Of a DNA stretch of 64,000 nt, positions 24,485-24,588 are shown piece after piece (position 1 is the first letter of the stretch; every line of letters starts with the position of its first letter). The position numbers and the translations under genes were made by a program. The DNA lies in contig OX597836.1 in NCBI GenBank assembly GCA_951406725.2, forward strand, positions 43,152,001 to 43,216,000, in the 5' to 3' direction. This DNA is from Octopus vulgaris (Eukaryota). The notes beneath the pieces are model-generated. The model was not told the origin of the DNA and ran no database searches. It was given only the letters and a program-made list of their open reading frames with translations.

Positions 24485-24588
24485 AGTTCCTTGCTTTTCC
24501 TGATGAGAAAGCGGCATAATATACTCCTTATTCCTTCGCAATTAGGAATATGCAGCTTTCGAAACATATGTCGAAAATAAAGGAATTT
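24485..24588 (+). ncRNA. Type I hammerhead ribozyme, complete consensus core
   Basis: TTTTC-CTGATGA(24500-24506)-GAAAGC..GCTTTC-GAAA-CATATG-TC-GAAAA; stem I extends TTCCTT/AAGGAA; palindromic ACATATGT stem III; predicted cleavage after 24572. Confidence 0.85.

Follow-up and report, generated by a model that had tools for sequence, protein, structure and literature searches.

The window analysed here (the whole 64-kb stretch of DNA) contains, in a truncated copy of a Penelope-like element, a hammerhead ribozyme with an intact core and a 54-nt stem II common to the element family, and it is probable that this ribozyme cleaves after C24572, weakly, and either as a dimer or together with the element protein. 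The complete type I hammerhead spans 24485..24588 in the order stem I, CUGAUGA, stem II, GAAA, stem III, GUC, and stem I. Briefly, the 5' strand of stem I (24478..24499, including a predicted distal extension) leads into the catalytic core C3–A9 (CUGAUGA; CTGATGA in the DNA; 24500..24506), followed by stem II (24507..24560), the segment of G12–A15.1, stem III, and C17 (24561..24572, with GAAA at 24561-24564), and the 3' strand of stem I (24573..24595), all on the forward strand. The core contains C3, U4, G5, A6, N7, G8, and A9, G12, A13, and A14, the A15.1–U16.1 pair, and H17, and the G10.1–C11.1 pair is also present; the cut site is predicted from the sequence to follow C24572 (C17). Stem I has 5 bp proximal to the core, a 2x2 loop, and further pairs, with ~20 bp predicted. 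Stem II is predicted to be composed of helix IIa (GAAAGC/GCTTTC, 24507-12/24555-60), a G.A mismatch, helix IIb (GCATA/TATGC, 24514-18/24549-53), a 12-nt 5' bulge, and the terminal hairpin IIc (TTCCT/AGGAA, 24531-35/24544-48). Stem III is the palindrome ACATATGT (24564-24571). The complete core, the stem I with an internal loop, the ~54-nt stem II domain with three paired segments, and the self-complementary stem III described in the first-pass annotation were all found at these positions, stem II being exactly 54 nt. Three helices surround the core with stem I open, stem III comprising only 2–3 bp in the monomer (predicted P ≤ 0.05). The 131-nt region with the hammerhead folds at z = −3.41, one of 200 shuffles being as stable. 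No Rfam model matched over the hammerhead at the gathering score, and no hammerhead family appeared at E ≤ 10. With a type I descriptor, the 64-kb window gave two matches, namely this hammerhead and an unrelated canonical one.

The hammerhead belongs to the 3' repeat of a Penelope-like element of the Hydra clade, which bears out the Penelope association proposed earlier. The copy in the window (24087..24625, +) is a 5'-truncated 3' UTR/pseudo-LTR that ends at the short 3' end, its exact end blurring into a (TA)n target repeat (24620..24677); a second (TA)n run ends upstream at 24017. Between this upstream run and the forward piece, blastn against 30 copies located an inverted piece of the extreme 3' end of the element (the long-tail end; 24018..24089, −), with a 3-nt overlap, and inverted 5'-truncated pieces are found among the element copies. 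The window copy is single, promoterless, and 5'-truncated, without the ORF or the 5' end (blastn against 30 loci starts at 24087); by itself it has no likely function, and it would be cut only if a host transcript reads through. In the 2.8-Gb, microsatellite-rich host genome, the 281 nt round the motif gave 2,031 candidates at first look, and the 40 scored showed mostly 96–98% identity. Just downstream of the hammerhead copy, and unrelated to its element, lies a reverse transcriptase fragment (25359-26965, +; 517-aa frame), which we take from its motifs to be LINE-type.

Other copies of the element carry an upstream single ORF with a reverse transcriptase (RT) followed by a C-terminal GIY-YIG endonuclease without CCHH, in which CxxC and CxH flank E and N. 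The ORF has DKT and RIRW (RWK-like) motifs and a divergent RT4 (L053 ORF, alignment), resembles Hydra-1_Obim in its motifs as compared by eye, and has 681 relatives at E ≤ 1e-10; a Pfam search with its C-terminal half retrieved 0 families. Because DKT, RIRW, the divergent RT4, and CxxC/CxH round E and N match the definition given in the available part of PMC8557442, the element is, as judged from its sequence, a high-copy Penelope-like element of the Hydra clade. The Naiad clade, which was considered for published 'half-core' cases, was rejected since the Naiad endonuclease is N-terminal and that of the present element is C-terminal. The CxCX5C linker before the endonuclease is missing in families A and B (L063:3117-5234 and L085:639-1178), in which an Asn-rich linker stands in its place; since the close relatives P0001 and P0003 keep CxCX5C, it was apparently lost within the clade. 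Even without the linker, 45 of the 49 long ends of family A abut (TA)n, with (TA)4 within 20 nt after the long-tail end, which argues against the proposed role of the linker in (TA)n targeting. The hammerhead starts 586 nt past the stop codon, and in the near-full copy L055 there are 261 nt between the cut site and the downstream ATG. Counted from the cut site, the 3' ends of the copies fall into two clusters, +57 to +70 and +187 to +193, like the pair of sites at which reverse transcription is reported to start in a lizard element. In families A and B the long 3' end is preceded by a hairpin with common GAATT/AATTC closing arms and differing interiors (window 24018-24045 (−), L044 and L083 tails), and this hairpin is a candidate reverse-transcription start signal.

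A non-LTR retrozyme, i.e. a tandem array of short, non-coding, hammerhead-bearing units, was also considered for the hammerhead at 24485..24588 and rejected, because the copies extend into a coding element and the window copy is single. Elsewhere in the window (62476-62881, −), three tandem units of ~195 nt each carry a canonical short-stem hammerhead, with the GUC site only in the unit at 62866 and GAC in the other two; this array looks like a non-LTR retrozyme, and 184-nt repeats related to its units recur within the window.

The perfect GAAAGC/GCTTTC helix claimed in the first-pass annotation is present in the window copy but rests on a private base, T24557 (24557..24557, +; 1/77 copies), a C-to-T change that turns the A.C mismatch of the subfamily into an A–U pair. 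Among the 77 copies, this site has the A.C mismatch in 68, a G–C pair in eight, and T in one. The other letter, C, was found at nearly all depth in 4/4 sequencing runs. Four presumed-RNA contig sets cover the family; they show no transcript ends, and none of them has T24557, although, coming from other samples, they are evidence neither way. In the copies with the A.C mismatch, a competing hairpin, formed by the stem I 5' strand and the beginning of stem II, is predicted to be favoured by 3.4–6.1 kcal/mol and to bury the core, and the predicted probability of the G10.1–C11.1 pair is 0.00–0.02 in this subfamily; T24557 restores the hammerhead fold in the window copy (predicted P, 0.94). It is most likely that T24557 arose by chance after insertion. 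The copy that looks cleanest is thus unrepresentative, and it is for the successful young subfamily that the poorest folding is predicted.

The core and the stems are conserved at the family level. The core is intact in 64 of the 77 copies of family A (selected by similarity) and in 21 of the 29 family B copies, and the core halves are identical between the two families, the surrounding 259 nt being 75.7% identical. In a structure count over 27 subfamily rows, 91.9% of cells are paired vs 40–49% in slid controls, and both sides have changed in 5/10 pairs of IIa and IIb and in 6/10 pairs of stem I; the rows of this alignment are related, most had been selected through the core pattern, and a single divergent row accounts for some of the double changes. 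In helix IIc there is hardly any variation, with covariation in one of five pairs and five rows misaligned by one column. Folded singly, 14 of the 19 representatives had z of −2.4 or lower (one row took up a mutated copy), and they have a common layout of a short helix, a small internal loop, a second helix, a 5' bulge, and a hairpin. Seven different 8-nt stem III sequences occur in the long-stem families, each a perfect palindrome. Fast natural hammerheads have a tertiary contact between loop II and stem I; a pseudoknot search from the stem II loops of 12 representatives, to which non-canonical contacts are invisible, found no conserved Watson–Crick partner. Judged by these alignments, the pairing of stem I, IIa, and IIb and the palindromic stem III are retained.

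The hammerhead with its palindromic stem III is standard for the Hydra clade, and the true oddity is the long stem II. As suspected in the first-pass annotation, it is unusually large, roughly double that of related elements: 53–59 nt in the subclade (families A, B, and B') vs ≤~26 nt in the published Hydra table, as far as the available part of PMC8557442 goes. Families A, B, and B' form one supported branch (100/99) in an RT tree of 62 rows, from which loci without a hammerhead or with <120 residues had been left out. Among 77 metagenomic Hydra-like loci (from the best 80 of 256), a hammerhead was detected in 51, all with a stem II of 10–25 nt, and 26 were without a detected hammerhead, many for want of 3' sequence; the metagenomic Hydra-like loci L176 and L194 have a U3–A8 core variant. 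Within the host genome, a very young, intact Hydra-clade family (L232-L261; 727-aa open frame in most of the 63 scored matches) carries a minimal hammerhead with a 10-nt stem II. A pattern with the core halves 35–65 nt apart gave 4,202 matches in the genome vs 1 for the reversed control, and the identical pattern with a 5–34-nt spacer gave 113 vs 1; because the pattern is tuned to this element family, the ratio of 4,202 to 113 is not a census. Among 100 long-spacer matches listed, 83 belong to this family group and 17 to six other sequence types, as counted by eye. Six repeat types besides this family group (L101-L115) with a 42–62-nt stem II and distinct palindromic stems III were observed, mostly as short inverted copies in (TA)n. 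Among the divergent long-stem families D–J, adjacent inverted Hydra fragments are present only in F (L104) and G (L112); further ORF matches were not found in the 20 F loci examined, and the F fragment is a long branch that does not group with A/B in the RT tree. Literature searches found no published description of a long-stem-II Hydra variant, and long stem II is not mentioned in the available part of PMC3088659; Lunse et al. 2017 (cited in PMC6765202) or the supplements of PMC4209133 could list long-stem variants.

From this conservation we infer that the designation 'probably active' holds at the level of the family. No stem III hairpin is predicted in the monomer, and the self-duplex has −7.0 kcal/mol; since the monomer is not expected to form stem III, a dimer or the element protein is probably required for activity, and the palindromic stem III signals dimer dependence rather than strength. 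A transcript of tandem elements would carry two hammerheads about one unit apart, whose palindromes could form an 8-bp stem III between them; a cut ~260 nt ahead of the start codon would trim the precursor to unit length. The long stem II may act as an ordinary helix II, with its first internal loop, 4–6 bp from the core, at the usual place of loop II, and the remainder may be an added hairpin, retained by the requirement that it fold clear of the core. Published Penelope hammerheads are reported to cleave weakly, as dimers, or only with the protein of the element. None of 37 5' truncation points falls at the cut site, and each hammerhead-bearing copy was templated by an RNA continuous across that site, either uncut or re-ligated; cleavage is therefore not evidently needed. 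In addition, the commonest close subfamily (A.C, 68/77 copies) multiplied despite its predicted misfolding.

The last two points touch on a reading in which catalytic use has been lost in the lineage, the fold being kept only as a template structure of the RNA or decaying in the youngest subfamily. The abundance of the A.C subfamily, despite its predicted loss of the G10.1–C11.1 pair, is in line with such a loss, as is the report on a lizard element that mutating the hammerhead left insertion in vitro unimpaired and that RNA ends at the cut site were not seen. We consider this reading very unlikely, because families with diverged flanks still have every core position, the NUH triplet, and the palindrome, and because folding energies ignore the effects of protein and dimer. 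It is less improbable, though still doubtful, that the distal stem II is a functional module, its bulge and hairpin contacting stem I or binding the RT of the element for faster or protein-gated cleavage. The 53–59-nt length and the layout persist in families A, B, and B', which are 55–76% identical in protein, single deletions are seen in copies and a shortened subfamily is not, an RYAC-like core is conserved in the bulge of most rows, the terminal hairpin survives a register shift in family A, and unrelated-looking families of the host genome also have 42–62-nt stems. However, in the 12 representatives neither the bulge nor the loop has a conserved pseudoknot partner, the bulge varies in sequence and in length (7–12 nt), the young intact Hydra family works with its 10-nt stem II, and the persistence could reflect shared descent.

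A bolder form, to which we likewise assign a low probability, would have one radiation of Penelope-like elements in animals build a structured 50–60-nt stem II domain that gates cleavage by docking on stem I or RT, the single change of the youngest subfamily creating an off-fold undone by the protein, so that the genome would hold thousands of protein-switched ribozymes invisible to Rfam. The element family also shows that at least several thousand intact hammerhead cores of a single animal genome escape standard models. It provides a natural series of well-folding older subfamilies, a young one predicted to misfold, a copy resembling a revertant, and a relative with a short stem in the host genome, which suits asking whether cleavage matters and whether the element protein chaperones the hammerhead.

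In comparison with known systems, hammerheads are universal in the Hydra clade, with a palindromic stem III of ACNN..NNGU, according to the accessible portion of Craig et al. 2021 (PMC8557442), to which the following Hydra-clade and spike-moss comparisons also refer. The present element has in common with them the type I hammerhead at the 3' end, the ACNN..NNGU stem III, insertion into (TA)n, the C-terminal GIY-YIG, and DKT, and differs in lacking the CxCX5C linker, a feature of the clade. In all 26 Hydra rows of File S2, stem II has 3–7 bp and a loop of 3–10 nt, in contrast to the 54 nt and three helices described here. The element does not belong to the Hydra-1_Obim family, the hammerhead of which differs as compared by eye. 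A precedent in stem length comes from the spike-moss elements PLE-X1_sMoe and PLE-X1_sTam (File S2), whose type I hammerheads, likewise associated with Penelope, are marked as deviating from the canonical form and have an extended stem II region (9 + 35 + 9 nt, i.e. 53 nt, in PLE-X1_sMoe); however, these elements are endonuclease-less, Chlamys-related single families of plants, tabulated without substructure or covariation. The minimal Penelope hammerheads of Cervera and de la Pena 2014 (PMC4209133, available part), for which a dimer model and low in vitro activity were reported, resemble the present one in the pseudo-LTR site, the G10.1–C11.1 pair, and the palindromic helix III, whereas their helix II (6–8 bp, closed by a simple loop) and their helix I (4–5 bp) are both much shorter. 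As in Poseidon_Ac (Frangieh et al. 2024; PMC11167929, available part), the hammerhead lies upstream of two preferred 3' ends, and genomic copies come from RNA intact at the cut site; in Poseidon_Ac, however, the ORF starts inside stem II, in contrast to the ATG ~260 nt downstream here, and the optional tail is 30–40 bp as compared with ~130 bp in the present element.
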